Shown one piece after another: positions 1,706-34,640 of a stretch of 37,944 bases of DNA (position 1 is its first letter; every line of letters starts with the position of its first letter). The stretch is from a phage. The stretch lies in the sequence record PZ247578.1. One strand, given 5' to 3'. A program made the translations under genes and the position numbers. The notes under the pieces are model-generated. The model was not told where the DNA came from and made no database searches. It saw nothing but the letters and a program-made list of their open reading frames with translations.

Positions 1706-1736
1706 CGAGAGGTCATCGACTGATAGGTGGCCTCAA
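1706..1736 (+). ncRNA. RNase III-like hairpin (GAGGUCA ... UGGCCUC), R0.5-like position
   Basis: 7-bp stem with one G-U pair and a 13-nt loop; same AGGTCA...GGCC(T) motif as the hairpins at 5483, 12305 and 34590. Confidence 0.4.
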
Positions 1737-1767
1737 AGATTACCACTTACATTAATAGGAGTTAACT

Positions 1768-1857
1768 ATGAATATCGGTTACTGGGTGTGCTTATCTCCG
1801 GTCATCTTTCTGATAGGGTATGGGATATACGACTGTATTAAACGGAAATCACTATGA
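1768..1857 (+). CDS. Small hydrophobic early peptide (29 aa, MNIGYWVCLSPVIFLIGYGIYDCIKRKSL)
   Basis: SD TAGGAG; one predicted transmembrane-like segment; stop overlaps the next start (ATGA). Confidence 0.4.
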   Translation: MNIGYWVCLSPVIFLIGYGIYDCIKRKSL

Positions 1858-2051
1858 GTCTTGCACTATTGATAGCCATAGGCTATGGACTTATCGCCTA
1901 CGTGCTGGTGAGAGACATCAACAAGGCACGTAAAGTCTATAAATTCAACTATGTACGTCTGGGCCGCTGGACTGTACGTCAACCTAACGGACGATTCATG
2001 CGCAACTTAGCGAACGTCTGGGATATAGCAACTCTTGGGAGCAAACTGTAA
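1854..2051 (+). CDS. Hypothetical early protein (65 aa) with an N-terminal hydrophobic helix
   Basis: Translationally coupled to the ORFs on either side. Confidence 0.55.
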   Translation: MSLALLIAIGYGLIAYVLVRDINKARKVYKFNYVRLGRWTVRQPNGRFMRNLANVWDIATLGSKL

Positions 2052-2377
2052 TGAACAAGTCATACGGGATTAATCTGGTACACTCTATGGACGCAGACAT
2101 GCAAATGTTAAGCCTACTGGCTACCGGGTATCGTCACGGAACGTCAAGTCACACCGCACGTCAACAGCAGGAGCGGGACCGTGTACTACAGGCGCGACTC
2201 CGGGCAGAGGGCCATATATACGAACTGATGAGTCTGGCGTTTGGTGGACGACCGCTCACTGACGATGGTAAACTTTTAGTCTCAGGCTGGAAGGCGATAG
2301 ACCAACGGTCAGCCATCAAGCACACGACTCACGGTGACTTCAGTCATCTTCACGCTAACCCACTGATATGCAAGTAA
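2051..2377 (+). CDS. Hypothetical early protein (108 aa)
   Basis: ORF with SD GGGAG, coupled to the upstream ORF (TAATG); occupies the T7 0.6/0.7 region but is far too short to be the 0.7 kinase. Confidence 0.55.
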   Translation: MNKSYGINLVHSMDADMQMLSLLATGYRHGTSSHTARQQQERDRVLQARLRAEGHIYELMSLAFGGRPLTDDGKLLVSGWKAIDQRSAIKHTTHGDFSHLHANPLICK

Positions 2378-2382
2378 TTATG

Positions 2383-2406
2383 ACTTAACTATCACTATAG
2401 GACTCA
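2383..2406 (+). promoter_or_regulatory. Phage RNAP promoter-like sequence (TTAACTATCACTATAGGACTC) upstream of the RNA polymerase gene
   Basis: Matches the core repeated 11 times in the window; followed by an R1-like leader (GACTCAAGGTC, then two copies of TAAGTGAAAGAC). Confidence 0.6.
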
Positions 2407-2474
2407 AGGTCTAAGACTCCAAGTGAAAGACCAAAGAGACTTTAAGTGAAAGACTAATAACAAGGACTTTAAGT

Positions 2475-5156
2475 ATGAGCGTCATCTCTATTGACAAACA
2501 CGACTTCTCTGATGTGTCGAACGCCATTGAGCCGTTTAACCTGCTGGCTGACCACTACGGGCAAGACCTTGCAGTCAAACAGCTTCAGCTTGAGCATGAG
2601 GCATATACAGAAGGCGAGCGACGTTTCATCAAGAACCTTGAGCGCCAGACTGAGCGCGGGGAACTGGCAGACAATCAGGTCGCCAAGCCTTTGATGCAGA
2701 CTCTGGTCCCTAAGATTGCGCAAGCCGTCAAGGAGTGGCATGAAGGTCCAGACGGGAAACTGTCAACCTCTCGTCCTAGCGTAGCGTTCACCATGTTGAG
2801 CACTGATGAGAAGGCCGTCAAGGACCGCTCTATGCGCATCTCCTGTGAGTCCGCTGCGGTTATCATACTGAAGGTCATACTCTCAAAGCTGGTAAAGCCT
2901 GAAGGGATACCGATTACACCGATGGCCTCCGCGATAGGTCGCACACTTGAGGACGAAATCCGCTTCGGTCGCATCCGTGACAAAGAGAAAGAGCACTTCA
3001 AGAAGGCGATAGCTGATAACCTGAATAAGAGGGCCGGGGCGTCATACAAGAAAGCCTACATGCAAGCGGTCGAGGCGTCCATGCTGGAGCAAGGCCAACT
3101 GGAAGATGCGTGGGGGACTTGGAGTCCTACAGAGGCTGTCCACGTTGGCATCAAGATGCTCGAGATTGTCATCCAGTCAACACAACTGGTCGAGCTTAAG
3201 CGGTACGGTGCTGGTAATGCAGCGGCTGACGTAGAGATGGTCCACCTGTCAGACTTCTGGGTCAAGAAGATGGCACAACGAGGATTCAGCCTTGCGGGTA
3301 TCGCTCCAGTCTACCAGCCTTGCGTCGTTCCACCTAAGCCGTGGACTGGTGTCGTAGGTGGTGGGTACTGGGCCAAAGGTCGCAGACCGTTACCATTGAT
3401 TCGCTTAGGGTCTAAGTCTGCGGTAGCACGTTATGAAGACGTATACATGCCTGAAGTCTATGACGCTGTGAATATCATCCAGAATACACCTTGGAAAGTG
3501 AACAAGAAGGTATTGGACGTGGTGAACACGGTCGAGAAGCTGAACAACACGCCTATTGAGGACATCCCTCAGATGGAACCGCTGAAGCCTGAGGACTATG
3601 CTGGTGAAACCGAGGAGGAACTAAAGGCATGGAAGAAGGCTGCTGCTGGTATCTATCGCCGCGAGAAGGCCAGACAGTCACGCAGATTATCACTGAGCTT
3701 TATCGTTAACCAAGCAAACAAGTTCTCTCAGTTCAAGGCCATCTGGTTCCCGTACAACATGGATTGGCGAGGTCGTGTCTACGCTGTCCCGATGTTCAAC
3801 CCTCAGGGTAACGACATGCAGAAGGGGCTCCTGACTCTGGCAGTCGGAAAGCCTATTGGTGCTGACGGTTTCAAATGGCTGAAGGTCCACGGTGCAAACT
3901 GTGCGGGTGTCGATAAAGTCACCTTCGATGAGCGCATCAAGTGGGTGGAAGACAACCACGAAAACATCATGGCTGCTGCTAAGGCACCGATGGATAGTAT
4001 TGAGTGGTGGGGCAAGTTAGACTCTCCGTTCTGCTTCCTAGCTTTCTGCTTCGAGTATGCTGGCGTAATGCACCACGGCTTGTCTTACTCCTGCTCGCTG
4101 CCGATAGCGTTCGATGGGTCCTGCTCTGGGATTCAGCACTTCAGCGCTATGCTTCGCGACCACATCGGTGGACATGCAGTAAACCTGACGCCATCCGGTA
4201 AGGTCCAAGACATCTACCGCATCGTGTCTGACCGCATTGAGGAGGAGCTTAAAGTCCTACTGGTTAACGGTACGGACAACGAGATGGTAACTCACGAGGA
4301 CAAGAAAACTGGTGAGATTACCGAGCGTCTCAAGCTGGGGACACGAGAGCTTGCCCGTCAGTGGCTGACCTACGGTATGTCACGAAAGGTCACTAAGCGT
4401 TCGGTCATGACTCTGGCCTACGGGTCGAAAGAGTACGGCTTCGCAGACCAAGTTTACGAGGACATCGTGATGCCAGCGATTGACTCAGGGTCTGGCGCTA
4501 TGTTCACTGAACCAAGCCAAGCGTCTCGCTTCATGGCAAAGATGATTTGGGAAGCTGTGAGTGTGACAGTAGTTGCTGCGGTTGACGCGATGAAGTGGCT
4601 TCAAGGTGCTGCCAAGCTGCTGGCTGCTGAGGTGAAGGACAAGAAGACTGGAGAAATCCTGAAGCCTTGCCTTCCGGTACACTGGGTCACACCTGATGGG
4701 TTCCCGGTCTGGCAGGAGTACCGCAAGAAGGATACTACTCGTCTGAACCTGATGTTCTTAGGGTCATTCAATCTTCAGCCTACCGTCAACAAAGGTACGA
4801 AGAAAGAGCTGGACAAGCACAAGCAGGAGTCAGGCATTAGCCCGAACTTCGTCCACTCACAAGATGGTAGCCACCTCCGCAAGACTGTAGTCCACACTCA
4901 CCGAAAGTATGGCGTGATGTCATTCGCAGTGATTCACGATAGCTTCGGGACCATCCCGGCTGACGCTGAGTATCTGTTCCGTGGCGTCCGTGAGACGATG
5001 GTAGAGACTTACCGCGATAACGATGTGCTGCTTGACTTCTACGAGCAGTTCGAATACCAGCTTCACGAGAGTCAGCGCGACAAGTTGCCTGAGCTTCCGA
5101 AGAAAGGTAAACTGAATATCGAGGACATCTTGTCTTCAGACTTTGCATTCGCTTAA
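2475..5156 (+). CDS. Single-subunit DNA-directed RNA polymerase (T7 gp1 homolog), 893 aa
   Basis: Catalytic motifs DGSCSGIQHFSAM and HDSFGT; length and position as in T7; ends in FAFA like T7 RNAP. Confidence 0.97.
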   Translation: MSVISIDKHDFSDVSNAIEPFNLLADHYGQDLAVKQLQLEHEAYTEGERRFIKNLERQTERGELADNQVAKPLMQTLVPKIAQAVKEWHEGPDGKLSTSRPSVAFTMLSTDEKAVKDRSMRISCESAAVIILKVILSKLVKPEGIPITPMASAIGRTLEDEIRFGRIRDKEKEHFKKAIADNLNKRAGASYKKAYMQAVEASMLEQGQLEDAWGTWSPTEAVHVGIKMLEIVIQSTQLVELKRYGAGNAAADVEMVHLSDFWVKKMAQRGFSLAGIAPVYQPCVVPPKPWTGVVGGGYWAKGRRPLPLIRLGSKSAVARYEDVYMPEVYDAVNIIQNTPWKVNKKVLDVVNTVEKLNNTPIEDIPQMEPLKPEDYAGETEEELKAWKKAAAGIYRREKARQSRRLSLSFIVNQANKFSQFKAIWFPYNMDWRGRVYAVPMFNPQGNDMQKGLLTLAVGKPIGADGFKWLKVHGANCAGVDKVTFDERIKWVEDNHENIMAAAKAPMDSIEWWGKLDSPFCFLAFCFEYAGVMHHGLSYSCSLPIAFDGSCSGIQHFSAMLRDHIGGHAVNLTPSGKVQDIYRIVSDRIEEELKVLLVNGTDNEMVTHEDKKTGEITERLKLGTRELARQWLTYGMSRKVTKRSVMTLAYGSKEYGFADQVYEDIVMPAIDSGSGAMFTEPSQASRFMAKMIWEAVSVTVVAAVDAMKWLQGAAKLLAAEVKDKKTGEILKPCLPVHWVTPDGFPVWQEYRKKDTTRLNLMFLGSFNLQPTVNKGTKKELDKHKQESGISPNFVHSQDGSHLRKTVVHTHRKYGVMSFAVIHDSFGTIPADAEYLFRGVRETMVETYRDNDVLLDFYEQFEYQLHESQRDKLPELPKKGKLNIEDILSSDFAFA

Positions 5157-5170
5157 CAGGAGAGAGAGTT

Positions 5171-5386
5171 ATGAAATTTGCACACAAGCAGACTGGCGTT
5201 AAGGGCGGGACTCAAATCGTGACCGTAACAGAACACAACGGCAAGGGTCTGGTGAAGACCACGGTCATTCCTACCGAAATGTCAAAGCAGCTTAACGTCC
5301 CATTCAAGACCCTCGTCTATCTTGTGGAATCTAGCCACGAGAAATACCTGAAAGACGCAGTGTCCAAGCTGGAGCATACCAAATGA
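5171..5386 (+). CDS. Hypothetical protein (71 aa) between the RNAP gene and the phi1.1-like promoter; no T7 counterpart at this position
   Basis: Strong SD ACAGGAGAGAG; basic and Lys-rich. Confidence 0.6.
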   Translation: MKFAHKQTGVKGGTQIVTVTEHNGKGLVKTTVIPTEMSKQLNVPFKTLVYLVESSHEKYLKDAVSKLEHTK

Positions 5387-5460
5387 CAGACCTACAGTTA
5401 CTGGCCCTGTGGCTGGGAGCACTCGCAGTATTCACTTTAATCCAACGCAGAAGAGGTTAA
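5383..5460 (+). CDS. Small hydrophobic peptide (25 aa, MTDLQLLALWLGALAVFTLIQRRRG)
   Basis: ATG overlaps the upstream stop (AAATGA); single transmembrane-like helix with a basic C-terminus; hand-translated. Confidence 0.3.
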   Translation: MTDLQLLALWLGALAVFTLIQRRRG

Positions 5461-5463
5461 CCC

Positions 5464-5486
5464 TAAACTATCACTATAGGATTAGA
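5464..5486 (+). promoter_or_regulatory. Phage RNAP promoter (TAAACTATCACTATAGGATTAG), phi1.1-like
   Basis: Consensus core; immediately followed by an RNase III-like hairpin. Confidence 0.8.
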
Positions 5487-5530
5487 CTCAAGGTCATGAC
5501 TCAAAGTCGTGGCCTTCATGATTAACCCTA
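5483..5530 (+). ncRNA. RNase III-like processing hairpin (R1.1 position)
   Basis: AGACTCAAGGTCATG...GTGGCCTTCATGATTAAC; same family as 12305 and 34590. Confidence 0.55.
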
Positions 5531-5554
5531 ACTCATTCAATCAGGAGCTACACC

Positions 5555-5734
5555 ATGTATCAGAACACTATCAACTTCGAGCGAATCCGTGAACGTCAGC
5601 AGACTGAAGATTATATTCCGAAGGGACGCAAGCTGAACAAGACCAAGCGTGGTGGAGGTGTCAAGGGTGCTTTCCGTAACGCTGAAGGCAAAGACTCTAT
5701 GGTCAACCAAGAGAAATACTTCGTAGGAGCATAA
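5555..5734 (+). CDS. gp1.1-like small basic protein (59 aa)
   Basis: KGRKLNKTKR matches my recollection of T7 gp1.1; SD CAGGAG; below the ORF-track cutoff, hand-translated. Confidence 0.6.
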   Translation: MYQNTINFERIRERQQTEDYIPKGRKLNKTKRGGGVKGAFRNAEGKDSMVNQEKYFVGA

Positions 5735-5737
5735 GTC

Positions 5738-5998
5738 ATGAACCATTACGAGCTTAAAGATTTCGCAAAGAGTCTTGGACTTGTGGTTGAGCACGACTGG
5801 TATGAGGACCTCCAGCGTAGACTTAAGGTAGAGCGAGTGTCCTTCAGGACAGACTACAGGTACTCACCAAAGAACGGCTACGAGAGAGGGGACCTGATAG
5901 CGAGACTTGAGTTTAATGACTCAATGGGTCCAACAGAATACGCCGATGCCATCGGTCCGGCTTACAACGCACTTAAACAATTTGAACTGTGGAGATAA
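5738..5998 (+). CDS. gp1.2-like protein (possible dGTPase inhibitor homolog), 86 aa
   Basis: Position and size match T7 gp1.2 (85 aa); a shared HDWYED / DDWYD-like motif; weak similarity only. Confidence 0.5.
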   Translation: MNHYELKDFAKSLGLVVEHDWYEDLQRRLKVERVSFRTDYRYSPKNGYERGDLIARLEFNDSMGPTEYADAIGPAYNALKQFELWR

Positions 5999-6002
5999 CA
6001 CA

Positions 6003-7064
6003 ATGACAACTATCAAAACCAACCCGCATCGCGCTGTAGATTACTCTGAGTCAGGCGTTAAGAAAGCGCTTGAAGCTGCTGGGTCGCTGGAAGCCGAAGT
6101 GAAGTATGACGGTGTGCGATTGAATATTCCGGTCTTCCCTGATGGGCGAACTGAATGGTTAAGCCGTGAGTCAAAGACGCTGCCGGCCTTAGACCATTTG
6201 TCAACAGTTGGTCAGGACATCGGAGCATGCCGTGCGTCCGACTGGCGATGGTTCCTGAAGCAAGCAGGACATGAAGTCTCTGGTCTGATGATTGACGGAG
6301 AGGTGATGGTCAAGGGTGTAGACTTCAACACATCCTCAGGTCTTATCCGCACCATGTGGTCTGACCGCAAGAACTACAAGTGGAACATTAACCCTAAGGC
6401 CGATATGGAGACCAAGAAGTCTAACAAGGTCCCATTCCAGATTAGCCCTGAGTTCCTACAAGTGGTCGTCTACGGGGTCATCGACCTTAACATCATCAAC
6501 GACCCGAAAGCAGAAGGTCCTATCCATAGCGTAACCCGCCTGAAGGCCGAAGCTATCGTCCCTCTCCTCCAGAAATACTTCCCTGAAATAAACTGGGTTC
6601 TGTCTGAGTCACACACGGTCTATGACCTTGAGTCGCTCAACTCCCTGTACGAACAGAAGCGTCTGGAAGGACATGAGGGTCTGGTAGTCAAGGACCCACT
6701 TGGTAAGTGGAAGCGTGGTAAGAAGTCAGGCATGTGGAAGATGAAGCCTGAGGAGACCATCGACGGGACCGTGTGTGGCCTCGTGTGGGGGACTCCTGGC
6801 AAGGCTAACGAAGGTAAGGTGATTGGCTTTGAGGTGCTGCTTGAGGATGGAATGGTGGTTAATGCTTGTGGTCTGACTGAAGAACAGAAGGATGAGTTTA
6901 CGGAAGCCTGTAACACTGATACATATATTCTCGGTGGAATCAATCCATACGAAGGCTGGCAGTGTGAAGTCCTATTCATGGAGCGCTTCCCGGATGGCTC
7001 ACTACGTCACCCTAGCTTCAAGTGCTGGCGCGGGACGGAAGATAACCCTACCATTAAGAGCTAA
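6003..7064 (+). CDS. ATP-dependent DNA ligase (gp1.3 homolog), 353 aa
   Basis: N-terminus MTTIKTNPHRAV..EAEVKYDGVR carries the KxDG adenylation motif and resembles T7 ligase; start taken at the internal ATG 6003 rather than the ORF-track start 5907. Confidence 0.92.
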   Translation: MTTIKTNPHRAVDYSESGVKKALEAAGSLEAEVKYDGVRLNIPVFPDGRTEWLSRESKTLPALDHLSTVGQDIGACRASDWRWFLKQAGHEVSGLMIDGEVMVKGVDFNTSSGLIRTMWSDRKNYKWNINPKADMETKKSNKVPFQISPEFLQVVVYGVIDLNIINDPKAEGPIHSVTRLKAEAIVPLLQKYFPEINWVLSESHTVYDLESLNSLYEQKRLEGHEGLVVKDPLGKWKRGKKSGMWKMKPEETIDGTVCGLVWGTPGKANEGKVIGFEVLLEDGMVVNACGLTEEQKDEFTEACNTDTYILGGINPYEGWQCEVLFMERFPDGSLRHPSFKCWRGTEDNPTIKS

Positions 7065-7072
7065 CTAAACGT

Positions 7073-7110
7073 CAACCCAGTGGTCTTCGGACTGCTGGGT
7101 TTCTTTGCTT
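7073..7110 (+). terminator. Intrinsic terminator (T7 TE-like): stem-loop with a UUCG tetraloop plus a U-rich tail
   Basis: AACCCAGTGGTC-TTCG-GACTGCTGGGTT followed by TCTTTGCTTTG; lies just after the ligase gene, as TE does in T7. Confidence 0.75.
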
Positions 7111-7148
7111 TGTGCTAGCAAGCTATCGTCTGGGACACCAGCTAGACC

Positions 7149-7172
7149 CTAAGCTATCACTATAGGACAACC
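7149..7172 (+). promoter_or_regulatory. Phage RNAP promoter variant (AAGCTATCACTATAGGACAACC)
   Basis: Core ATCACTATAGG with a -12 variant. Confidence 0.7.
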
Positions 7173-7198
7173 GTAACTTCGACCTAAGGAGGCCGACC

Positions 7199-7453
7199 AT
7201 GTTTAAGAACTTAATGTTCAACCGTTATTCCAATACCTTCCATCTGTCCAACAACCCGTTCGCCTGCATTAAGCGCAACGAGAAGCTGGGCTACTTCGGG
7301 AAGGCCGTTAAGCTGTCACCTACAGTCTACGCTCTGATTACTCCGGGCAAAGCTGAAGAGGCTCGCCAGAAGCGTGAGACAAATGTGCCAGTGGTATACA
7401 CCAAGTGGCCACGCGTTCGTCTATTCATTGAGTACATGAAGGAGGTGTTATGA
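7199..7453 (+). CDS. Hypothetical protein (84 aa), gene 1.5/1.6 position
   Basis: SD AAGGAGG; ORF follows a phage promoter. Confidence 0.65.
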   Translation: MFKNLMFNRYSNTFHLSNNPFACIKRNEKLGYFGKAVKLSPTVYALITPGKAEEARQKRETNVPVVYTKWPRVRLFIEYMKEVL

Positions 7454-7522
7454 TTAGATGTATTGCTTTCTTAGAGAAAGATGACCGTTAACACACATAC
7501 ATGCAATAAAGGAGCTAACAAT

Positions 7523-7996
7523 ATGAACGCACTTGAACAAGAGATTATCATTAAGTTGGTAGATAATAACGAAGGTCGCCCAGATGATTTGAATGGCTGC
7601 GGTATTTTCTGCCATAATGTCCCTTGCTACCTATGCCCTGTAAATATCAATAAAAAGATAACCTTAGGTGAAATCCGAGCGATGGACATACGTAAGCCTA
7701 AACTGGAGAAACCAGAGGTAACTACTACAGAAGACCAGCCTTACGCTAAGGCTATCGACGACGTACGCAAGCCGTCCCACTATCAGGTCTTTGACGGTGT
7801 GGAGTCCATTGAGATTATCGCTCGGTCCCTGACTGTCAGCGAGTTCCGTGGTTTCTGCATGGGTAACGTCCTGAAGTATCGACTACGAGCTGGTAAGAAG
7901 TCAGAGCTGGCGACTATGGAGAAGGACCTGAACAAAGCAGCCTTCTATCAGGAGCTGTTCGACCTACATAAAGGTAAGTGCTATGCTGCCGAGTGA
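7523..7996 (+). CDS. gp1.7-like protein with a DUF3310-type C-terminal motif (possible nucleotide kinase), 157 aa from ATG 7523
   Basis: PSHYQV..GVESIEII..F..GNVLKYRLRAGKK resembles the motif I recall in T7 gp1.7 relatives; SD AAAGGAG at 7523; an upstream ATG at 7481 is possible. Confidence 0.6.
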   Translation: MNALEQEIIIKLVDNNEGRPDDLNGCGIFCHNVPCYLCPVNINKKITLGEIRAMDIRKPKLEKPEVTTTEDQPYAKAIDDVRKPSHYQVFDGVESIEIIARSLTVSEFRGFCMGNVLKYRLRAGKKSELATMEKDLNKAAFYQELFDLHKGKCYAAE

Positions 7997-8078
7997 GTGG
8001 TGCGAGCGTAAATTTGAGGAGACAGGTAACGTCGATTACCTTCAGCTCTACAACTTATGGAAGGAGCGTGGTCTATGA
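7983..8078 (+). CDS. Small hypothetical ORF (31 aa), gene 1.8 position
   Basis: Overlaps the gp1.7 stop and the gp2 start; hand-translated. Confidence 0.3.
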
Positions 8079-8233
8079 CTGACGTAGAGAAGAAATACAT
8101 CGTTGAGCTTGAGGGGCGCGTTCAGTCCTTCGAGGTTCCGGTGTACGCAAAGTCTCTTGAAGAGGCTACACTGAAGTCCCAAGAGTATGAGGACGCTGGG
8201 TTTGTGGTCGGACGGATTCGTCCTGAGGCCTAA
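8075..8233 (+). CDS. gp2-like inhibitor of host RNA polymerase (52 aa)
   Basis: [14 protein letters not shown]...[10 protein letters not shown] matches recalled T7 Gp2 (SFEVPIYAETLDEA...AGFEVTRVRP); SD AAGGAG; hand-translated. Confidence 0.8.
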
Positions 8234-8253
8234 ACTATCACTGTAGGACAGAC
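8231..8253 (+). promoter_or_regulatory. Phage RNAP promoter variant (TAAACTATCACTGTAGGACAGA)
   Basis: Core with A-to-G change at -4 (CTGTAGG). Confidence 0.6.
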
Positions 8254-8289
8254 GTCCAGTTCGTAACTTTAAATAGGAGATTTACACCG

Positions 8290-10358: not shown

Positions 10359-10377
10359 ACTATCACCTTAGGGATGG
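10355..10377 (+). promoter_or_regulatory. Divergent phage promoter-like sequence (CTAAACTATCACCTTAGGGATG) followed by a short hairpin
   Basis: Core altered to CACCTTAGGG; GGGACA-N8-TGTCCC stem and TTTGTT at 10376..10401. Confidence 0.4.
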
Positions 10378-10423
10378 GACAATAAGTCCTGTCCCTTTGT
10401 TCGCATTCGTGATTAAGGAGTGA

Positions 10424-12127
<1,704 letters not shown>

Positions 12128-12138
12128 GGAGGAGTACA

Positions 12139-12303
12139 TTGCTAAGAAAACTTAAAGCTCGCTACCATCGGTTCATGTACAAATGGTGGAGCGATGAAGC
12201 AACCTGCCTGTCGAACATTCTGGGAGACCAGCGGTTCAACTCTGAGGCATGGAAGAAAGCTAACCGGAAGTTCATGTATCACTTCTTGCGTACAGACTTC
12301 TAG
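12139..12303 (+). CDS. Small basic hypothetical protein (gene 4.3/4.5 position), start uncertain
   Basis: ORF overlaps the gene 4 stop; AAGGAGG precedes TTG 12139; the ORF-track start is GTG 12106 and an ATG lies at 12175. Confidence 0.4.
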
Positions 12304-12304
12304 G

Positions 12305-12350
12305 TCTAGACTCAAGGTCATTCACATCGAGTGGCCTTTATGATTAGACT
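12305..12350 (+). ncRNA. RNase III-like processing hairpin (R4.7 position)
   Basis: AGACTCAAGGTCATTCACATCGAGTGGCCTTTATGATTAG; same family as 5483 and 34590. Confidence 0.55.
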
Positions 12351-12357
12351 AAACGGA

Positions 12358-14538
12358 GGATTAACCATGTTTGACCTTAAGAGTATCTGGGGTTCTGACA
12401 TCGAGACCAACGGTCTCCTTGATACAGTCTCCCAGTTTCACTGTGGGGTCCTGATTAACGCCGAGTCGAATGAGACCCTTAAGTATGGGGTAGCTCCGAT
12501 GGTCGGTATCGTCGGTGGCTTCAAAGAGTATGTGCATAAAGTGGAAGAGATTGCCGCATCACCTGATGGCATGCTGGTATTCCACAATGGTATCAATTAT
12601 GACGTCCCTGCTATTGACAAGCTGAAACGTCTGTACTTTGGGAAACGCTTTAACTTCCCTAAACACAAGATGATGGATACCTTGGTGCTTGGGCGCTTGA
12701 TGTATCCAAACATTAAGTTCTCAGACATGGGAGCGGTGAAAGCTGGTCGTCTGCCACCTCAGATGATGGGACGGCAGTCTCTTGAGGCTTGGGGCTATCG
12801 TCTCGGTGAGATGAAAGGTGAGTACAAACACGATTACGTTGCCAAGTGCAAGGCTGAAGGTATCGAATATAAGGCTGGGGACGAATGGTTGTTCCCATCT
12901 CAGGAGATGCTAGACTATAACGTTCAAGACGTTGTGGTCACACTGGCGTTGTTCAAGAAGTTCCTGACTGACAAGTATTACTTCCAGTCTGAACAGTTTG
13001 CTTTCGACCAGATTTATGCGTTGCGTCTGGAACATGATGCTGCGTGGACCTGTGCGAAGATGGAACGTAACGGCTATCCGATGAACACCGAGATGGTCGA
13101 AGGCTTATATCGTGAACTCACTGTCAAACGTGCAGAGCTGCTGGACAAGCTGCGTTCGACTTTCGGTAGCTGGTACGCACCAAAGGGAGGCAAGGAGTTC
13201 TTCAAGCACCCACGGACAGGCAAGGACCTTCCGAAGTATCCACGAGTCGTGTATCCTAAGGTCGGGTCAGTATTCAAGAAGCCGAAGAACAAAGCTCAAC
13301 GCTTAGGTCTGGAGCCTTGCGAGTTCGACTCACGAGACACGATGGAGGGAGCACCGTTCACACCTATCACTTACGTTGAGTTTAATCCGGGAAGCGGAGA
13401 CCACTTAGCGAAAGTCTTGATGGAGCGTGGTTGGGAGCCTGTGGACTTCACTGACACTGGGAAACCTGTAGTCGATGACGAGACGTTAGAACACGTTAAG
13501 CTACCAGACGCAGAGGCTCAGGCTTGCGTAGAGCTGGTCCGTGAGTATCTGGTAGTCCAGAAGCGCATCGGTCAGGCGGCTGAAGGTAAGAACGCATGGT
13601 TGAAACTTGTAGGTCCAGACGGACGTATGCACGGTTCAATCAACCCATGCGGTGCAGTAACAGGACGTGCGACTCATAGTTCACCAAACATGGCTCAGGT
13701 CCCTGCTAACGGTGCTCCGTATGGTGAGATTTGCCGTGGTGCTTTCGGTGCAGCTTGGAACAAGACGGATGGTAAGCCAGACCCTTGGATTCAAGTAGGC
13801 GTGGATGCTTCAGGTCTTGAGCTTCGTTGTCTGGGGAACCGAGCGGCTCCGTTTGATGGTGGAGATTATGCGAAGACTGTGGTCGAAGGTGACATACACT
13901 GGGCAAACGCAGTAAACGCTGGTTTAGCACCTAACGTCCCACGCGATAAATCGAACCACGACCATGATGCTTTCCGTAACAACGCTAAGACGTTCATCTA
14001 TGCGTTCCTGTATGGTGCAGGGGCCGCTAAGATTGGACTGATAGTTGGTGGTGGTAAGAAGGAAGGTGCGGCCCTGATGAAGAAATTCATTGAGGGTACA
14101 CCAGCTATCAAGGACCTCAGGGAAGCTGTGAGTAATACGTTAATCTCAGACTCTAAGTGGGTGGACGGAGAGAACATCGTCAAGTGGAAACGCCGTTGGT
14201 TGCGTGGACTTGATGGTCGCCGTATCCACATCCGGTCGCCACACTCAGCACTGAACGCCTTACTTCAAGGCGATGGTGCGGTAGTCTGTAAGCACTGGAT
14301 TGTCGAGACTGAACGTATGCTCGAAGAGGCAGGGTATGTTCACGGCTGGGAAGGTGACTTTGCGTACATGGCGTGGGTGCATGATGAATTGCAGATTGCG
14401 TGTCGTACTCAGGAGATTGCCGAAGAAGTCGTCAAGATTGCTCAACTTGCTATGCGTAAGGTGGGTGAGTTCTATAACTTTAAATGCGTCCTTGATACCG
14501 AAGGTAAGATTGGACCAACGTGGAAGGAGTGTCACTAA
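12358..14538 (+). CDS. DNA polymerase (gp5 homolog, family A with 3'-5' exonuclease), about 726 aa
   Basis: Exo motif SDIETNGL, KFHCGV, VFHNGINYDVPA; start taken at ATG 12358 (SD GGAGG) because ATG 12331 lies inside the conserved hairpin. Confidence 0.93.
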   Translation, partial: GLTMFDLKSIWGSDIETNGLLDTVSQFHCGVLINAESNETLKYGVAPMVGIVGGFKEYVHKVEEIAASPDGMLVFHNGINYDVPAIDKLKRLYFGKRFNFPKHKMMDTLVLGRLMYPNIKFSDMGAVKAGRLPPQMMGRQSLEAWGYRLGEMKGEYKHDYVAKCKAEGIEYKAGDEWLFPSQEMLDYNVQDVVVTLALFKKFLTDKYYFQSEQFAFDQIYALRLEHDAAWTCAKMERNGYPMNTEMVEGLYRELTVKRAELLDKLRSTFGSWYAPKGGKEFFKHPRTGKDLPKYPRVVYPKVGSVFKKPKNKAQRLGLEPCEFDSRDTMEGAPFTPITYVEFNPGSGDHLAKVLMERGWEPVDFTDTGKPVVDDETLEHVKLPDAEAQACVELVREYLVVQKRIGQAAEGKNAWLKLVGPDGRMHGSINPCGAVTGRATHSSPNMAQVPANGAPYGEICRGAFGAAWNKTDGKPDPWIQVGVDASGLELRCLGNRAAPFDGGDYAKTVVEGDIHWANAVNAGLAPNVPRDKSNHDHDAFRNNAKTFIYAFLYGAGAAKIGLIVGGGKKEGAALMKKFIEGTPAIKDLREAVSNTLISDSKWVDGENIVKWKRRWLRGLDGRRIHIRSPHSALNALLQGDGAVVCKHWIVETERMLEEAGYVHGWEGDFAYMAWVHDELQIACRTQEIAEEVVKIAQLAMRKVGEFYNFKCVLDTEGKIGPTWKECH

Positions 14539-15965: not shown

Positions 15966-16019
15966 GTCTAACCGATAGTCATATCCTATTAATCCAACAG
16001 TAATCCATAGGTGAAACAC

Positions 16020-16042
16020 TAAACTATCACTATAGGGACTTT
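16020..16042 (+). promoter_or_regulatory. Phage RNAP promoter (TAAACTATCACTATAGGGACTT), phi6.5-like
   Basis: Full consensus core. Confidence 0.85.
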
Positions 16043-16101
16043 AGGACCTAAGATATGACTATAAGATAGACTTTAGTCTTAACTTAAAGAGGAGATTCAA
16101 G

Positions 16102-19824: not shown

Positions 19825-19826
19825 GA

Positions 19827-19849
19827 CTAAACTATCACTATAGGGAGAC
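19827..19849 (+). promoter_or_regulatory. Strong phage RNAP promoter (CTAAACTATCACTATAGGGAGACC), phi10-like
   Basis: Best match to the full consensus including GGGAGA; upstream of the capsid gene. Confidence 0.9.
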
Positions 19850-19950
19850 CAAGAGAAAGACTCAAGGTTTCCCTATTACTTCAGTCCATACGGATTGGGC
19901 ATACAGTAAGTAATATACTTTATCTTTCAATTGAATAGGAGAATTATCAT

Positions 19951-21263: not shown

Positions 21264-21268
21264 TTGAA

Positions 21269-21308: not shown

Positions 21309-21323
21309 TTAAGGAGTAAACCT

Positions 21324-22117: not shown

Positions 22118-22126
22118 GGAGGGCCT

Positions 22127-24484: not shown

Positions 24485-24510
24485 CTTATTGAAGGGCCTA
24501 TAGATTTACC

Positions 24511-24533
24511 TTAACTATCACTATAGGGACTAT
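24511..24533 (+). promoter_or_regulatory. Phage RNAP promoter (TTAACTATCACTATAGGGACTA), phi13-like, flanked by a perfect 12-bp inverted repeat
   Basis: Consensus core; flanking arms AAGGGCCTATAG (24492..24503) and CTATAGGCCCTT (24530..24541). Confidence 0.85.
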
Positions 24534-24560
24534 AGGCCCTTAAGGTTATAAGGAGACTTT

Positions 24561-25603: not shown

Positions 25604-25614
25604 GAGGAGGACTA

Positions 25615-27897: not shown

Positions 27898-27901
27898 CAT
27901 A

Positions 27902-30900
27902 ATGGCGACTCGTGGTATTCGCAATAACAATCCGGGTAACATCCGGGTAGGTAAGGACCAATGGGAAGGAATGACTGGAGATGATGGCGCATTCGTCACC
28001 TTCGATAGTCCAGAGTCTGGCGTCCGAGCTTTAGGTAAAAACCTGCTGTCCTACGGTCGCCAAGGCTATGACTCCATCGAGAAGATTATCAACCGATGGG
28101 CACCTCCTAACGAGAACGACACTAAGGCTTATATCGACTCAGTGGTGGCTGCAACTGGTATTCCAGCTACACAGAGTCTAGACCTATCGGACCCTGACAC
28201 CCTGTCTTCTCTGGCACAAGCTATCAGCTTCCATGAGACAGGCTCACGGTACGACCCTGAAGTCTATCAGAAGGGAGTCGCACGGGCACTCAACGGCATT
28301 AGCCCAAAGACTCCACCAGTAAGCGCTAACGTATTTGACGCACTCACGGAAGGACTCAAGGCTAAACCTAAAGTAGCTCTTGGCGAGAACCTTCCGACCG
28401 CTGCTGGTCTGAATATTGAGGGTCAAGCACCTGAAGCTCCCAACGAATCGTTCGGTGAGATGTTCTATAAGGCTACTGGAGAGACCATGCGGGAACTAGA
28501 GGACCGCTCTACGTGGTTCGGTTTCGGTGCTGCTACAGAAGCTGAAGTGAAGAACTCTATGGTCGGCGTGGCTATCCGCGCTGGTAAGACCGAGGACTCA
28601 CTTGATGTCATTGGCGATGTGTTCAACCCTACCCGCTGGAACAACCATAAGTGGACTCGTGAAGAGTTGGACCAGATTCGTAACGCTGGGGTTCTGCCTC
28701 AGTATTACGGAGTCATTACTGGTGGTTCTCCTCAGAACCTGACCGAGCTTATTAACTTGGCGCTTGAGAACCAGAAGTTGGACCAAGAGAAGGCCAAGGC
28801 TGGGACTGGTGCTCAGCTAGCAGCTGGTGTTATTGGTGCTGGTGTAGACCCTCTGACATACGTTCCTATCGCTGGACAGGTTGGCAAAGGTGCGAAGCTG
28901 GTCAACAAGATGTTCACCGTGTCTGCTCAATCTGGAGCACTGGCTGGTGTGTCCGAGATGGCCCGTACCTCAGTGGCTGGTGGCGATGCTCATGTGGCTG
29001 AAGCTATCCTTGGTGGTGCTCTCTTCGGAGGTGGTATGACTGCTATCGCTGATGGGCTAGGCAGAGCCTTAGGCCGCAACACTAACGAGTTCGCTGGTCC
29101 AGCCACACGTCTGGAAGCTCGTGAGACAGCCCGTAACGTTGATGGTCAGGACCTGTCTCGTCTCCCTATTCAGGAAGGTGAGCCGACCTTTAGTCATCAA
29201 GGCGTTAAGTTCGCTGACGTTCCGAATGAGCCGGGTAGTGTACGACTTGAAGATGGTTCAATCCTGATTGGTGAGAACCCTCTGAACCCTAAGACACGTC
29301 AAGTCTTTGACGAAGTGATTGAGCCTGAACGTGCCGCTGCTGGTGTGAACCTTGGGGGACTTACCGAGATTGGCCTGAAGCTGCTTCGGTCTGAGAACCC
29401 TGAGATTCGTGGAGTCGCTGCTGACTTAGTGCGTTCACCAACCGGTATGCAGTCAGGGGCCTCAGGTAAAATCGGGACCACTGCGTCAGACGTATTCGAG
29501 AGACTTCGTGCTGTGGACCATCGGTTCTACAACGACATCGACGACGCGGTTACTGAGGCGCTCAAGGACCCATACTTCCAGACAGCATTCTGGCGAGACT
29601 CTGGCGCATTCCGTCAGGACATCTACCAGCGTGTGTCTATGGCTATTGAAGACGGAAGTGGGAACCTGAAGGCTGAACTGACTCCGGGAGAACTGAAAGT
29701 CTATGACCTGCTGAAGAACCAGTTTGATGCCAAGCGTGAGATGATGGAGAACCCGGCGATGTTTGGTCGTCCAGACGCTCAGTCTATCTTTCCGGGTAGC
29801 CGCTTCAATGGAACCTACGTCCCTCATGTGTATAGCAAACAGATGAAGGAGCTGTACATCAAGGAGCTTGGGAGTCCAGAGGCGTTGCAGGAGGCCATCA
29901 AGAAGTCATGGTTGACCAGCTATGCGTCTCGACCTGAGGTCAAGAAACGTGTGGACGAGGCACTCTTAGAGGCTGACCCTACGTTGACTCCAGAAGGACT
30001 TGCGGCTGCGGTCGATAAGTACGCCAACGATAAGGCTTATGGTATCTCTCACACCGAGCAGTTCGAGCGTTCATCCGTAATGGAGGAGAACATCAACGGG
30101 CTGGTGGGTCTGGAGAACAACAGCTTCCTTGAGTCTCGTAACCTGTTCGATAGCGATATGTCAATCGTTCTTCCTAACGGTCAGACCTTCAGTGTCAACA
30201 ACCTGCGTGAGTGGGACATGGACAAGATTGTCCCGGCCTACAACCGTCGAGTTAATGGTGATATTGCTATCATGGCTGGTACAGGCAAGACCACGAAGGA
30301 AATGAAGGACTTAGTTGAGACCATGATGAACAAGGCTGGCGATGACGGAAAGTTGAAAGGTGAAGTATCTACCTTACGTGACACCCTGAAGATTCTCACT
30401 GGTCGTGCTCGACGTGATGGTGCTGATGATGCGGCCTTCGCTACCGTGATGCGCACGATGACAGACCTATCGTTCTTCGCTAAGAGTGCCTACATGGGTG
30501 TTCAGAACTTAACGGAGATTGGTGGTATGCTAGCTCGTGGTAACGTCCGTGCAATGCTGCATGGAGTCCCGATGTTCCGTGACCTAGCCTTCCGTAACAA
30601 GAAGGTCGGGGCCTCAGAGATTAAGGACCTGCATAATGTTCTCTTCGGTAAGGAACTTGATGACTCAATACGTCCGTCTAAACAGGATGTCATTGACCGT
30701 CTGCGGTCTTACAGTGACCTCGGTCGTGGTACAGCTACAGCTCTGGGGACTGCCAAGTATTACACTGGTGAACTTGCTGTCCGCTCCCCGTTCACTAAAG
30801 TCCTCAACGGTACGACCAACTACCTGTTAGATGCTGGACGTCAGGGCTTCCTGTCTGACATCGTGGAGCATAGCCTGACTGGTAGTAAGCGTAAGTTCGA

Positions 30901-31789
30901 TGACCGCTGGCTGAAGACCGCTGGTATCTCTGACGAGCAGTGGAAGGGCATTAAGTCCCTAATCCGTGAGTCAGTGACTCGTGGTCCAGACGGGAAGTAC
31001 ACCATCAAGGATAAGAAGGCGTTCAGTCAGGACCCAAGGGCTATGGACCTATGGCGTATGGGTGACACCATCGCTGACGAGACGTTACTCCGGCCTCATA
31101 AGCTGTCAAACATGGACTCCAAGGCTTATGGTCCTCTCGCTAAGACTGTCCTTCAGTTTAAGAACTTCGTCATCAAGTCAATCAATGGTCGAACCATGCG
31201 AACATTCTATAACGCCACGAAGAACAACCGAGCGATGGACGCTGCACTGTCTACTGTGATGTCTATGGGTCTGGCTGGTATCTACTACATGGCTCAGGCG
31301 CACGTCAAGGCTTACGCTATGCAGGACGGTCGAGACCGAGATTATCTCAAGCAAGCTCTGGACCCAACGATGATTGGCTATGCGGCCCTGTCCCGTAGTT
31401 CACATCTTGGTGGACCCCTTGGGGTAGCTAACATTCTAGGTGGCATCGCTGGGTATGAGGACACTAAGATGCTCCGTTCGTCTATCCTCCCGCGTTCACC
31501 TACAGAGAAACCCGAACGTGCCATCTCATATGGTGCGGCTACAAGTGACCCTGTGATGAATGTCGTTGGTAACTTCTTGGAGCAGGTCCCGGCTTTCGGC
31601 TATATTGCTAACGTTGGCGCTTCGGCATACAACTTGGCTGGCTACCTCAAGGCTGATACTCGTGTCAACGAGCGTGACTACATGACCGGGATGTATAATA
31701 CGTTCCGTGAACTTGTACCGAATGACCCGATTACCCAGAAGTTGCTGCTTGGAACGTTTGAGGAGCAGGGCATCCACATCAAGGACTAA
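27902..31789 (+). CDS. Internal virion protein D (gp16 homolog), about 1295 aa; the N-terminal roughly 130 aa differ from the T7 transglycosylase domain
   Basis: From about residue 200 onward collinear with recalled T7 gp16 (STWFGF, PTRWN..WT.EELD.IR, VVTGGSP, RLEARETARN, RSPTGMQSGASGK, ENNSFLE.RNLFDSD); N-terminus begins MATRGIRNNNPGNIR. Confidence 0.9.
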   Translation: MATRGIRNNNPGNIRVGKDQWEGMTGDDGAFVTFDSPESGVRALGKNLLSYGRQGYDSIEKIINRWAPPNENDTKAYIDSVVAATGIPATQSLDLSDPDTLSSLAQAISFHETGSRYDPEVYQKGVARALNGISPKTPPVSANVFDALTEGLKAKPKVALGENLPTAAGLNIEGQAPEAPNESFGEMFYKATGETMRELEDRSTWFGFGAATEAEVKNSMVGVAIRAGKTEDSLDVIGDVFNPTRWNNHKWTREELDQIRNAGVLPQYYGVITGGSPQNLTELINLALENQKLDQEKAKAGTGAQLAAGVIGAGVDPLTYVPIAGQVGKGAKLVNKMFTVSAQSGALAGVSEMARTSVAGGDAHVAEAILGGALFGGGMTAIADGLGRALGRNTNEFAGPATRLEARETARNVDGQDLSRLPIQEGEPTFSHQGVKFADVPNEPGSVRLEDGSILIGENPLNPKTRQVFDEVIEPERAAAGVNLGGLTEIGLKLLRSENPEIRGVAADLVRSPTGMQSGASGKIGTTASDVFERLRAVDHRFYNDIDDAVTEALKDPYFQTAFWRDSGAFRQDIYQRVSMAIEDGSGNLKAELTPGELKVYDLLKNQFDAKREMMENPAMFGRPDAQSIFPGSRFNGTYVPHVYSKQMKELYIKELGSPEALQEAIKKSWLTSYASRPEVKKRVDEALLEADPTLTPEGLAAAVDKYANDKAYGISHTEQFERSSVMEENINGLVGLENNSFLESRNLFDSDMSIVLPNGQTFSVNNLREWDMDKIVPAYNRRVNGDIAIMAGTGKTTKEMKDLVETMMNKAGDDGKLKGEVSTLRDTLKILTGRARRDGADDAAFATVMRTMTDLSFFAKSAYMGVQNLTEIGGMLARGNVRAMLHGVPMFRDLAFRNKKVGASEIKDLHNVLFGKELDDSIRPSKQDVIDRLRSYSDLGRGTATALGTAKYYTGELAVRSPFTKVLNGTTNYLLDAGRQGFLSDIVEHSLTGSKRKFDDRWLKTAGISDEQWKGIKSLIRESVTRGPDGKYTIKDKKAFSQDPRAMDLWRMGDTIADETLLRPHKLSNMDSKAYGPLAKTVLQFKNFVIKSINGRTMRTFYNATKNNRAMDAALSTVMSMGLAGIYYMAQAHVKAYAMQDGRDRDYLKQALDPTMIGYAALSRSSHLGGPLGVANILGGIAGYEDTKMLRSSILPRSPTEKPERAISYGAATSDPVMNVVGNFLEQVPAFGYIANVGASAYNLAGYLKADTRVNERDYMTGMYNTFRELVPNDPITQKLLLGTFEEQGIHIKD

Positions 31790-31808
31790 ACTATCACTAT
31801 AGGAAACT
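31786..31808 (+). promoter_or_regulatory. Phage RNAP promoter (CTAAACTATCACTATAGGAAACT), phi17-like
   Basis: Consensus core. Confidence 0.85.
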
Positions 31809-31853
31809 GGAGGCGCTACCATAGGTCTCCGTTTAAATCACAAAGGAGGCATA

Positions 31854-34040
31854 ATGTCCACGATTACACAATTCCCTTCAGGAAACACTCAGTACAGGAT
31901 AGAGTTCGATTACCTAGCCAGAACGTTTGTTGTTGTTACGCTGGTGAATAGCTCTAACCCTACCCTGAACAGTGTACTGGAAGTTGGTCGAGATTACCGA
32001 TTCCTTAACCCAACGATGATTGAGATGTTGGTTGACCAATCAGGTTTCGACATCGTTCGTATTCACCGTCAGACTGGAACTGACTTAGTGGTAGACTTCA
32101 GGAATGGCTCAGTGTTGACAGCTAGTGACCTGACCAATTCAGAGCTTCAGGCTATCCATATTGCAGAAGAAGGTCGAGACCAAACGGTTGACTTAGCGAA
32201 GGAATATGCCGATGCTGCTGGTAGCTCTGCTGGCAACGCTAAGGATAGCGAGGACGAAGCACGACGAATCGCTGAGAGTATCAAGGCATCTGGTCGAATC
32301 GGCTATATTACCCGTCGCTCCTTCGAGAAAGGCTTCAACGTTACAACATGGAACGAGGTCCTGCTATGGGAAGAGGACGGTGAGTATTACCGCTGGGATG
32401 GTGCGCTTCCAAAGAACGTTCCTGCCGGCTCAACACCTGAAGCATCTGGTGGTGTTGGCATTGGTGCATGGGTTAGTGTTGGTGATGCTTCATTGCGCAG
32501 TGATTTGACCCTAAGCACTGGCGCACGGCGAGTTGGGACAACATCCGGCAGGACCGTACAGGCAGAGCTTGATATCCTCAAAATGGGGTACAAGACGCTT
32601 GATGACTTTGGTGCAAAAGGTGACGGAAGTACAGACGACACCGCTGCCATATTCAATGCCTTTTCGTGGGCCTCAACCAACGGACTACCACTTAGAGTTC
32701 CAAGCAAACCATATGTTTGGAATGGCGACGTTATTCCATACGATAATGTGACCCTCATTGGTGATAAGCGGCCCTATGCGGATTCAGGGTTAACTCGTCT
32801 TCTTGATGGTAGTATTATCGTAGGTACGCTCAGATTTAGTGGCAAAAACATACAAATCAGCAATATTGGAGTCGATCACGGTTCGTTCCGGTTCCCGTCG
32901 ACAGCTGGTGATGCCCTCATTGTATCAGCCCCTGAAAAATCAGGGCAGTATTGCCTTATAAGAAACTGTGTTGGACTAGGGCGAAATCCAACCGATGCAT
33001 TTCACGCTATTCTGTGTGAAGGTTATAAATATTCAATTATTGAAGATTGCATCGGCATACAGAATACATATAGCATCGCGCACAAAAGTGGTTATTCAAT
33101 CACGAATAATATAATATCCATAAACTCAAACACAGGTGTTATTGTTAAATCTGATAGTGCATTTGGTGATGCCAGTTTCTGTAATATTACCAATATTACC
33201 ATTGATGGAAATGAAAACTGTAATATTGGCTTGTGGGTTTTTGCGCAAGACGCTCAACTACAGAAGGTTAATGTATCTAATATTGTAGTATCTGGATGTA
33301 AATACGACATGGTGGTGCAGGCTGATGCTGGCGTCATCAATGAAATTAACATTAACAATCTGGCAAGCTCTGGGGCATCCATAGCGTCACTAGCACTGGT
33401 GGCTAATGCCGCCGATAAGATATACACCGTAAACATATCAAACATTTCAGCTGGCGAAGTTACAGGGCAAATTATTGATGCGCAGGTAGCTAATTTGCTG
33501 AATGTATCGAATGTTACTGGGCGAATTACCAGCTCATCGACGCACGTCAGTGACTCCATAAAGATAGGGGAATTAGTTGGCGCTTCAAATCTTGTTAATG
33601 TAATTCCCACTTTGAATTACAGTTTAACATCTCAGGCTGGAGTGACTTTTAATAACGCTTTTGAAAATAACAGCATCAGTAATGTTCGCGCTGCTATATA
33701 CGGAAGCGGAGCGCCGCGACCAGGGTATGCAACACAGGGCGCAAGCGGTGTCTCTGGAGTGCTTTCGGTAAGATATAGCCAGACAAACTCGTCATTCATA
33801 AAGCTAACTCTTCCTTCAGGAGCAGCTGAGATAGCTACCATACACACAACAGCCATCAATGGCTCGGTAATACCGGAAGGATATGTATTATGGATACAAA
33901 ACGCCACCTCCGGACAAAACCTAACGATAACTCCTTCTACTGCTGGTCATATCGTTACAACCGGGAATACTCCAAAGGTGTTGGCTGGCGGTGATAAAGT
34001 TGGCTTTATGTTTGATGGTAACACATGGATTCAGATGTAA
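31854..34040 (+). CDS. Tail fibre/tailspike (gp17 homolog): T7-like N-terminal adaptor domain fused to a pectate-lyase-fold beta-helix, probable polysaccharide depolymerase
   Basis: N-terminal approx. 150 aa resemble T7 gp17 (FDYLARTFVVVTL, LVVDFRNGSVL, AEEGRD); downstream LDDFGAKGDGSTDDTAAIFNAF is the pectate-lyase/tailspike signature; many N-x-[ST]/I-rich beta-helix-like repeats; C-terminal two-thirds is AT-rich. Confidence 0.85.
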   Translation: MSTITQFPSGNTQYRIEFDYLARTFVVVTLVNSSNPTLNSVLEVGRDYRFLNPTMIEMLVDQSGFDIVRIHRQTGTDLVVDFRNGSVLTASDLTNSELQAIHIAEEGRDQTVDLAKEYADAAGSSAGNAKDSEDEARRIAESIKASGRIGYITRRSFEKGFNVTTWNEVLLWEEDGEYYRWDGALPKNVPAGSTPEASGGVGIGAWVSVGDASLRSDLTLSTGARRVGTTSGRTVQAELDILKMGYKTLDDFGAKGDGSTDDTAAIFNAFSWASTNGLPLRVPSKPYVWNGDVIPYDNVTLIGDKRPYADSGLTRLLDGSIIVGTLRFSGKNIQISNIGVDHGSFRFPSTAGDALIVSAPEKSGQYCLIRNCVGLGRNPTDAFHAILCEGYKYSIIEDCIGIQNTYSIAHKSGYSITNNIISINSNTGVIVKSDSAFGDASFCNITNITIDGNENCNIGLWVFAQDAQLQKVNVSNIVVSGCKYDMVVQADAGVINEININNLASSGASIASLALVANAADKIYTVNISNISAGEVTGQIIDAQVANLLNVSNVTGRITSSSTHVSDSIKIGELVGASNLVNVIPTLNYSLTSQAGVTFNNAFENNSISNVRAAIYGSGAPRPGYATQGASGVSGVLSVRYSQTNSSFIKLTLPSGAAEIATIHTTAINGSVIPEGYVLWIQNATSGQNLTITPSTAGHIVTTGNTPKVLAGGDKVGFMFDGNTWIQM

Positions 34041-34133
34041 TCTCAGCCTGTGTAGGTAGAGGCTAACTACATGCTGACCAACGTATGGTAACAACTTTGG
34101 GTCACGGACGACCCGCTTTAAACTGGAGGTTTT

Positions 34134-34328
34134 ATGATTGAGTTAGACTTCAAGAATGAGGTCCTTAAAGCCTCTCCTATCGTCGGGACCGCTGCGGCTG
34201 ATGGTGCCAGTCGGTTCTTCTTCGGACTTACACTGAACGAATGGTTCTACGTTGCAGCTATCGCGTACACCGTTGTCCAGATTGGTGTGCTAGTCTACAA
34301 AACGATTAAAGGAGGCGGTAAAACATGA
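34134..34328 (+). CDS. Class II holin (gp17.5 homolog), 64 aa
   Basis: FFFGLTLNEWFYVAAIAYTVVQIG nearly identical to recalled T7 holin. Confidence 0.9.
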   Translation: MIELDFKNEVLKASPIVGTAAADGASRFFFGLTLNEWFYVAAIAYTVVQIGVLVYKTIKGGGKT

Positions 34329-34588
34329 CGCAGATGGACTTAGAGAAGTTCCTCTTAATGCTAGATACTGAACGTGCTCGACTCATGCTGCAAGACCTGC
34401 GGGATGACTCTAAGCGTTCTCCTCAGCTTTACAACGCCATTGAGAAGCTACTGGCTCGTCACAACTTTGTGTTAAGCAAGGTGTCTGTGGACGAGAAGAC
34501 GCTGGCTGATATGGAGGCCCTGAACGCAGAGTATGATAAGGTGCTTTCAGCGACTGAGGATAATGACACCGGGTATGGTGTTCAATAA
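34325..34588 (+). CDS. Terminase small subunit (gp18 homolog), 87 aa
   Basis: Position between holin and Rz as in T7; size matches T7 gp18 (89 aa); SD AAAGGAGG. Confidence 0.75.
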   Translation: MTQMDLEKFLLMLDTERARLMLQDLRDDSKRSPQLYNAIEKLLARHNFVLSKVSVDEKTLADMEALNAEYDKVLSATEDNDTGYGVQ

Positions 34589-34589
34589 G

Positions 34590-34640
34590 TGTTAGACTCA
34601 AGGTCATTACTATATGTAGTGGCCTTTATGGTTAACACTA
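34590..34640 (+). ncRNA. RNase III-like processing hairpin (R18.5 position)
   Basis: TTAGACTCAAGGTCATTACTATATGTAGTGGCCTTTATGGTTAAC; same family as 5483 and 12305. Confidence 0.55.

Follow-up and report, generated by a model that had tools for sequence, protein, structure and literature searches.

We analyzed a 37,944-nucleotide stretch of phage DNA (sequence record PZ247578.1; the whole stretch is called the window below) and identified a family of hairpins that are, with a probability of about 0.9, host RNase III processing sites of the T7/T3 type. This identity is supported by homology to annotated sites of phage T3, by gene neighborhoods, by strand specificity, and by covariation. Judged by its sequence, the window comes from a Kayfunavirus phage (K1F-like, T7 group). 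An earlier interpretation made without database searches (the sequence-only reading) had taken four of these hairpins for a dedicated mRNA-processing signal. The processing role is upheld by the homology to T3 and T7, from which cleavage is predicted, whereas the signal is a known one that is read by a host enzyme, and it is represented here by six canonical members and three candidates. Signals of this kind in T7 and T3 have been known since the 1970s and 1980s, and the specific Kayfunavirus copies may be unannotated.

Identification of the hairpin family

The pattern AGGTCA-N(8-20)-TGGCC has exactly four occurrences in the window (at positions 1710, 5491, 12315, and 34601), all on the + strand, compared with 0.28 expected, and a count of four or more was reached in none of 100 shuffles. 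The four intergenic hairpins of the sequence-only reading were found where it had placed them, and the pattern AGACTCAAGGTCAT…GTGGCCTT(T/C)ATG(A/G)TTA, which it had ascribed to the three long copies, is common to them exactly as described. Its list of members was incomplete, since two further sites (509-569 and 1329-1389) belong to the same family.

In all four hairpins of the original set, an asymmetric internal loop (4-5 and 5-6 nt) separates an upper stem of 9-12 bp from a lower stem of 7-9 bp, and the z-scores of the folds relative to shuffles are -2.0 to -3.9. This layout agrees with that of T7/T3-type signals, in which an asymmetric internal loop breaks a double-stranded RNA of about two helical turns and the predicted loop-side cut is separated from the apical loop by 10-11 bp or more. 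An 11-bp helix is required in an RNase III substrate (PMC1540722), and the upper stem of the site at 1694 has only 9 canonical pairs. A scan of the whole window with 4227 Rfam families gave no matches at the gathering score.

In the T3 record AJ318471, ten stem-loops from R0.3 to R18.5 are annotated as "RNase III recognition site", and seven of the ten read (A)ACTCAAGGTC-loop-GTGGCCTTTATGATTA or close variants, which is the motif common to the window hairpins. In the T7 sequence, blocks of the same family were found at the R-site and cleavage coordinates that we take to be those of Dunn & Studier 1983, and the presumed R1.1 reads acaaactcaaggtcattcgcaagagtggcctttaTgattg. No RNase III features are listed in the T7 records NC_001604 and V01146 as displayed. 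The correspondence of the four hairpins to R0.5, R1.1, R4.7, and R18.5, as originally proposed, agrees with their gene neighbors and with the T3/T7 feature tables.

Covariance models and distribution in related phages

To avoid circularity, we aligned seven T3 and seven T7 sites and no sequence from this phage. Compensatory changes are seen at 11 of the 19 pairs in the consensus fold of this alignment. A covariance model built solely from these 14 sequences (the T3/T7-only model) was used to search the window with filters off, and gave six matches on the + strand with scores of 29.6-57.6 bits (E 6e-12 to 8.5e-5); the next match had 17 bits. The four hairpins noted from the sequence are therefore the top four matches of a model that was blind to the phage. 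The second model, which was built from relatives (the Kayfunavirus model), recovered exactly the same six sites at 46-69 bits, followed by a match of 11.7 bits. In K1F, six matches lie at the corresponding places.

The distribution of the motif was examined at 35 loci anchored on gp18, taken from IMG/VR. They replaced a scan of IMG/VR with the pattern CAAGGTC-N(9-17)-TGGCCTT, which gave mostly single chance matches in unrelated contigs and in which only three contigs (L027, L039, and L062) looked T7-like. Every examined locus of the Kayfunavirus-like type (gp18 at least 90% identical) has a match that begins at the gene 18 stop and scores 45-62 bits. At the 12 loci with gp18 only 51-56% identical (IMG/VR contigs L148-L159), neither model found a site. 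Because these distant loci give no match, the conserved motif is, as far as can be judged from these sequences, confined to a part of the T7-like group (the T7, T3, and K1F lineages) and not universal.

The six canonical sites

All six sites lie on the + strand, and a start codon is found 15-50 nt 3' of each hairpin; bit scores and E-values below refer to the T3/T7-only model unless the Kayfunavirus model is named, and gene boundaries follow the open reading frame (ORF) map. The R18.5-equivalent (34585..34640) is the strongest match (57.6 bits, E 6e-12; fold z = -3.9), and is placed between gene 18 (stop at 34588) and gene 18.5 (ATG at 34690). The R4.7-equivalent (12299..12352; 49.8 bits, E 6e-10; z = -2.8) overlaps the stop of a gene 4.3-like ORF (12303), the last one in the gene 4 region, and ends 15 nt before the DNA polymerase gene 5 (ATG at 12367). 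T7 R1.1 has exactly the same upper stem, AAGGUCAUUC/GAGUGGCCUU. The R1.1-equivalent (5475..5530; 49.1 bits, E 9.1e-10; z = -3.1) follows an ORF ending at 5386, overlaps the promoter 5467-5480 at its 3' end, and precedes gene 1.1 (ATG at 5555).

The remaining sites belong to the early region. The R0.5-like site (1694..1748) lies between an ORF ending at 1635 and a short ORF (ATG at 1769) that is followed by the gene 0.6 homologue (1854). It has a variant internal loop, ACGAG / CAAAGAUUA, and scores 31.5 bits (E 2.8e-5) with the T3/T7-only model and 58.6 bits with the Kayfunavirus model; its orthologues are at 1765-1819 in K1F and at 1489-1543 in EcoDS1. The R0.3-like site (509..569), with the loop ACUAC / GACUGAU, stands directly before the ocr-like gene 0.3 (ATG at 590) and scores 29.6 bits (E 8.5e-5), or 46.4 bits with the Kayfunavirus model. 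A second R0.3-like copy (1329..1389) precedes the ORF 1408-1635, and scores 30.4 bits (E 5.5e-5) and 46.2 bits, respectively.

Each of the two R0.3-like sites is contained in one copy of a 75-nt direct repeat (508-582 and 1328-1402; 97% identity) that combines an RNase III-type hairpin with a Shine-Dalgarno sequence. The copies of the repeat flank a gene pair consisting of gp0.3 (ocr-like) and phrog_5058. The repeat suggests a duplication, or an exchange of modules at such junctions.

Three subclasses of internal loops can be distinguished. The subclass ACUCA/UAUGAU is found in the R1.1, R4.7, and R18.5 equivalents, which are the three sites outside the early region that precedes gene 1, and the subclasses ACUAC/GACUGAU and ACGAG/CAAAGAU are found within that region. 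One could imagine that the unit of hairpin and Shine-Dalgarno sequence is a portable junction of early-gene modules, and that the loop subclasses differ in function (in efficiency, in timing, or in binding without cutting). The idea of a portable junction is suggested by the 97%-identical 75-nt copies around the gp0.3 module; we consider the proposal as a whole unlikely. If it were true, the internal-loop subclasses would program different mRNA fates and would not be interchangeable RNase III sites.

Folding and selection at the RNA level

Folding is much more stable for the + strand (-18 to -24 kcal/mol) than for the − strand (-10 to -17 kcal/mol), so the element works in the form of RNA. Each window site contains 3-4 G·U pairs. 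In an alignment of 55 distinct sequences from relatives, 94.5% of the cells were occupied by standard pairs, compared with 24-48% when the 3' partners were slid by 1-3 columns, and changes on both sides were seen in 16 of the 19 pairs, values that have to be read with the alignment having been fitted to the model, which favors pairing. Inspection of unfitted sequences likewise revealed compensatory maintenance of the stems in related phages. Among the orthologues of the site at 1694, GGUCAUC…GGUGGCC is replaced by GGCCACU…AGUGGUC, which is a compensatory swap, and in relatives of the R18.5-equivalent the apical stems vary in length with their pairing kept.

Predicted processing and alternative explanations

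In T7, the host RNase III cuts the polycistronic transcripts at ten sites, often beside promoters, and the phage is able to grow without this enzyme (PMC6938266). In the R1.1 RNA, only one phosphodiester is cleaved (PMC4858673), and the internal loops limit cutting to one strand, leaving a 3' hairpin that is protective against exonucleases (PMC1540722). By the same scheme, each site in a polycistronic transcript of the window phage would fold into a helix of ~20 bp broken by the asymmetric internal loop, and the RNase III of E. coli or Salmonella would recognize the upper helix, with a proximal box AAG/CUU beside the loop and a distal box UU/AG ~9-10 bp further up. The enzyme would break one phosphodiester in the 3' half of the internal loop, within (U/C)AU^GAU. 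This cut would separate the upstream and downstream mRNAs; the upstream RNA would then terminate in the hairpin, which would probably protect it from 3' exonucleases. The predicted cuts are U34629^G34630, U12341^G12342, U5519^G5520, and A1737^G1738, as well as cuts after 558 and 1378, all of them placed by alignment with the presumed T7 coordinates and accurate to +/- a base or two.

The pairs that are optimal for E. coli RNase III were described by Pertzev & Nicholson (2006) as a proximal box of G-C, A-U or U-A, A-U, and A-U or U-A, within an 11-bp helix, and a distal box of U-A and U-G (PMC1540722). Exactly such optimal combinations are present at 12299 and at 34585; in the latter site, the proximal box (G-C, A-U, A-U) and the distal box (U-A, U-G) are canonical by this standard.

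Several points weigh against the identification as RNase III sites, including the fitted covariation alignment mentioned above. The presumed T7 cleavage coordinates are absent from the T7 records as displayed, and are corroborated by the motif at these positions and by the sites annotated in T3. In the K1F and EcoDS1 records, promoters and terminators are annotated and RNase III sites are not, and in the open literature, with the K1F genome paper not covered, we found no paper linking Kayfunavirus with RNase III. At the site at 5475, the first position of the distal box is G-C instead of the canonical U-A; at the site at 1694, the third position of the proximal box is G-C and the first position of the distal box is C-G. 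Because such box changes reduced the reactivity of a minimal R1.1 substrate (PMC1540722), the sites at 1694 and 5475 may be weaker substrates.

These deviations also bear on the idea that the hairpins bind RNase III, or merely fold, and are left uncut, serving only to stabilize the mRNA or to modulate translation of the gene that follows. Engineered R1.1 variants that are bound and not cleaved have been described (PMC1540722), and the short distance of 15-50 nt from hairpin to start codon would suit a translational role. However, the same kind of deviation as at 1694 occurs in the annotated T3 R1 (CAGGUCAUC..GGUGGCCUG) and in the sequence at what we take to be the T7 R1 position. Moreover, the upper stems at 12299 and 34585 are identical or nearly identical to that of the efficiently cleaved T7 R1.1, and the loop sequence UAUGAU around the T7 cut is conserved. 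We therefore regard a role without cleavage as very unlikely.

Two further explanations are also improbable. An action at the DNA level (protein binding, a recombination junction, or an origin element), with the RNA fold being incidental, would fit the hairpin-bearing 75-nt copies on both sides of a gene module, as expected for module exchange, but it is highly improbable given that all six sites are on one strand, that the compensatory changes keep RNA pairing, and that the G·U pairs correspond to A·C mismatches in the opposite strand, where the folds are 2-10 kcal/mol weaker. It is scarcely credible that the hairpins are transcription terminators or pause signals for the host or the phage RNA polymerase. 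They are stable, G+C-containing, intergenic, and located on the transcribed strand, yet no U-tract follows any of them, (U/C)AUGAUUA or a similar sequence being found instead, and we rejected this explanation on that ground. A terminator scan of positions 1-8000, a range that excludes the sites at 12299 and 34585, flagged none of the five sites there, while it did find the early terminator at 7074-7101, and the layout of two helices with an internal loop and a covarying lower stem is not a terminator feature.

The identification as RNase III processing sites is of value mainly for annotation: it allows a Kayfunavirus transcript map to be drawn by analogy to T7 and T3, and it introduces no new biological principle. 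The six canonical sites and the three candidates described below are useful for engineering K1F-type phages or for modeling their gene expression.

Candidate sites at promoters

Three further hairpins on the + strand, at 10371, 15975, and 24485, are candidate sites of the R3.8, R6.5, and R13 types. The canonical covariance models do not detect them, and for this reason they are rated only as candidates. At the candidate R3.8-type site (10371..10407), the transcript from the promoter at 10359 begins with a hairpin that is followed by CCCUUUGUUCGCAUU and has a fold z-score of -4.05. Its 15-nt block CCCTTTGTTCGCATT is identical in T7, where the copy lies around what we presume to be the R3.8 position. 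In the candidate R6.5-type site (15975..16062), an 11-bp lower stem (AUAGUCAUAUC/GAUAUGACUAU) encloses the promoter at 16023. This hairpin (z = -2.2) aligns by position with R6.5 of T7 and T3, and its score of 9.4 bits with the Kayfunavirus model (E 7) is not significant. The candidate R13-type site (24485..24552) has a 12-bp stem, AAGGGCCUAUAG/CUAUAGGCCCUU, that encloses the promoter at 24514 before gene 13. Its fold z-score is -3.76, K1F and EcoDS1 carry the identical sequence, and its 3' arm, GGCCCTTAAGGTTA, resembles the family motif.

The transcript from the capsid-gene promoter starts with another hairpin, GGGAGACC…GGUUUCCC, at 19845-19877, whose loop contains ACTCAAGGTT. Its stem arms match the T7 hairpin GGGAGACC…GGUUUCCC at what we take to be the R3.8 position, and presumably also the stem-loop of the T7 phi10 leader.

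An equivalent of R1 was considered at the half-motif ACTCAAGGTC (2402-2411) and rejected, as it has no 3' partner, a z-score of -0.26, and no match to either model. The half-motif comes after a promoter, ACTATCACTATAGG at 2388-2401, which lies just before the RNA polymerase gene (ATG at 2475), and is followed by an imperfect 21-nt repeat (2414-2434 and 2437-2457). In the EcoDS1 record, a 'phi' promoter is annotated at the place that matches window position 2388. Before the ligase gene, neither covariance model found an equivalent of R1.3.

Genome context

In a megablast search, the first 20 kb of the window were 93-97% identical, over more than 90% of the query, to Salmonella phage ST0223, several "Kayfunavirus sp." genomes, and many K1F-like coliphages. 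The ORF map shows the T7 gene order, and matches to PHROG families include the ocr-like gp0.3 (590-1087), the small terminase gp18 (34325-34588), and the Rz-like spanin gp18.5 (34690-35139). The core of the phage promoter, ACTATCACTATAGG, has eight exact copies and three that differ at 1-2 positions; every copy is on the + strand, in front of a gene at which a promoter is expected.

At the extreme left end of the window (1-75), we observed a 15-nt tandem repeat, ACCTACAGTCCTACA, in ~4.5 copies; tandem repeat arrays near the genome ends are typical of T7-group phages. A strong intrinsic terminator (7074-7101), with a 12-bp stem and then a T-run, is located just 3' of the ligase gene, in agreement with the early terminator TE of T7, T3, and EcoDS1.

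The T7 gp0.7 kinase stimulates RNase III (PMC4858673). A kinase of this type appears to be missing from the window phage: no ORF of kinase size was found between gene 0.3 and gene 1 (590-2475), where the largest ORF has 108 aa and the PHROG matches are all of unknown function.

Comparison with the RNase III sites of T3 and T7

The window hairpins resemble T3 R0.5, R1.1, R4.7, and R18.5 in their sequence blocks, in the fold of two stems with an internal loop, in strand, and in neighboring genes. The overlap of promoter phi1.1 (5984-6006) with R1.1 (6003-6053) in T3 is the arrangement seen at 5475-5530 of the window. T3 R4.7 stands directly before gene 5, as does the site at 12299-12352, and T3 R18.5 is found at the junction of genes 18 and 18.5, like the site at 34585. 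The placement of T3 R0.5 is similar to that of the site at 1694, upstream of the gene that is named 0.6 in K1F and EcoDS1, and R0.3 precedes gene 0.3, as does the site at 509-569. In contrast, the apical loops and lower stems of the window hairpins differ from those of T3 in sequence, with pairing preserved. The window also differs from T3 in having no equivalent of R1.3 or of the canonical R1, and in having the R0.3-type site duplicated.

In T7, R4.7 precedes gene 4.7, which is absent from the window. The candidate equivalents of R3.8, R6.5, and R13 of T7 and T3 are located at the promoters before genes 4, 6.5, and 13, and are otherwise diverged, although the promoter-in-hairpin layout of R13 is the same as at 24485-24552. 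T7 R1.1 is the model substrate of the Nicholson laboratory, and its proximal and distal boxes, together with the UAUGAU segment of its internal loop, are conserved in the window, the boxes being canonical throughout at 12299 and 34585.

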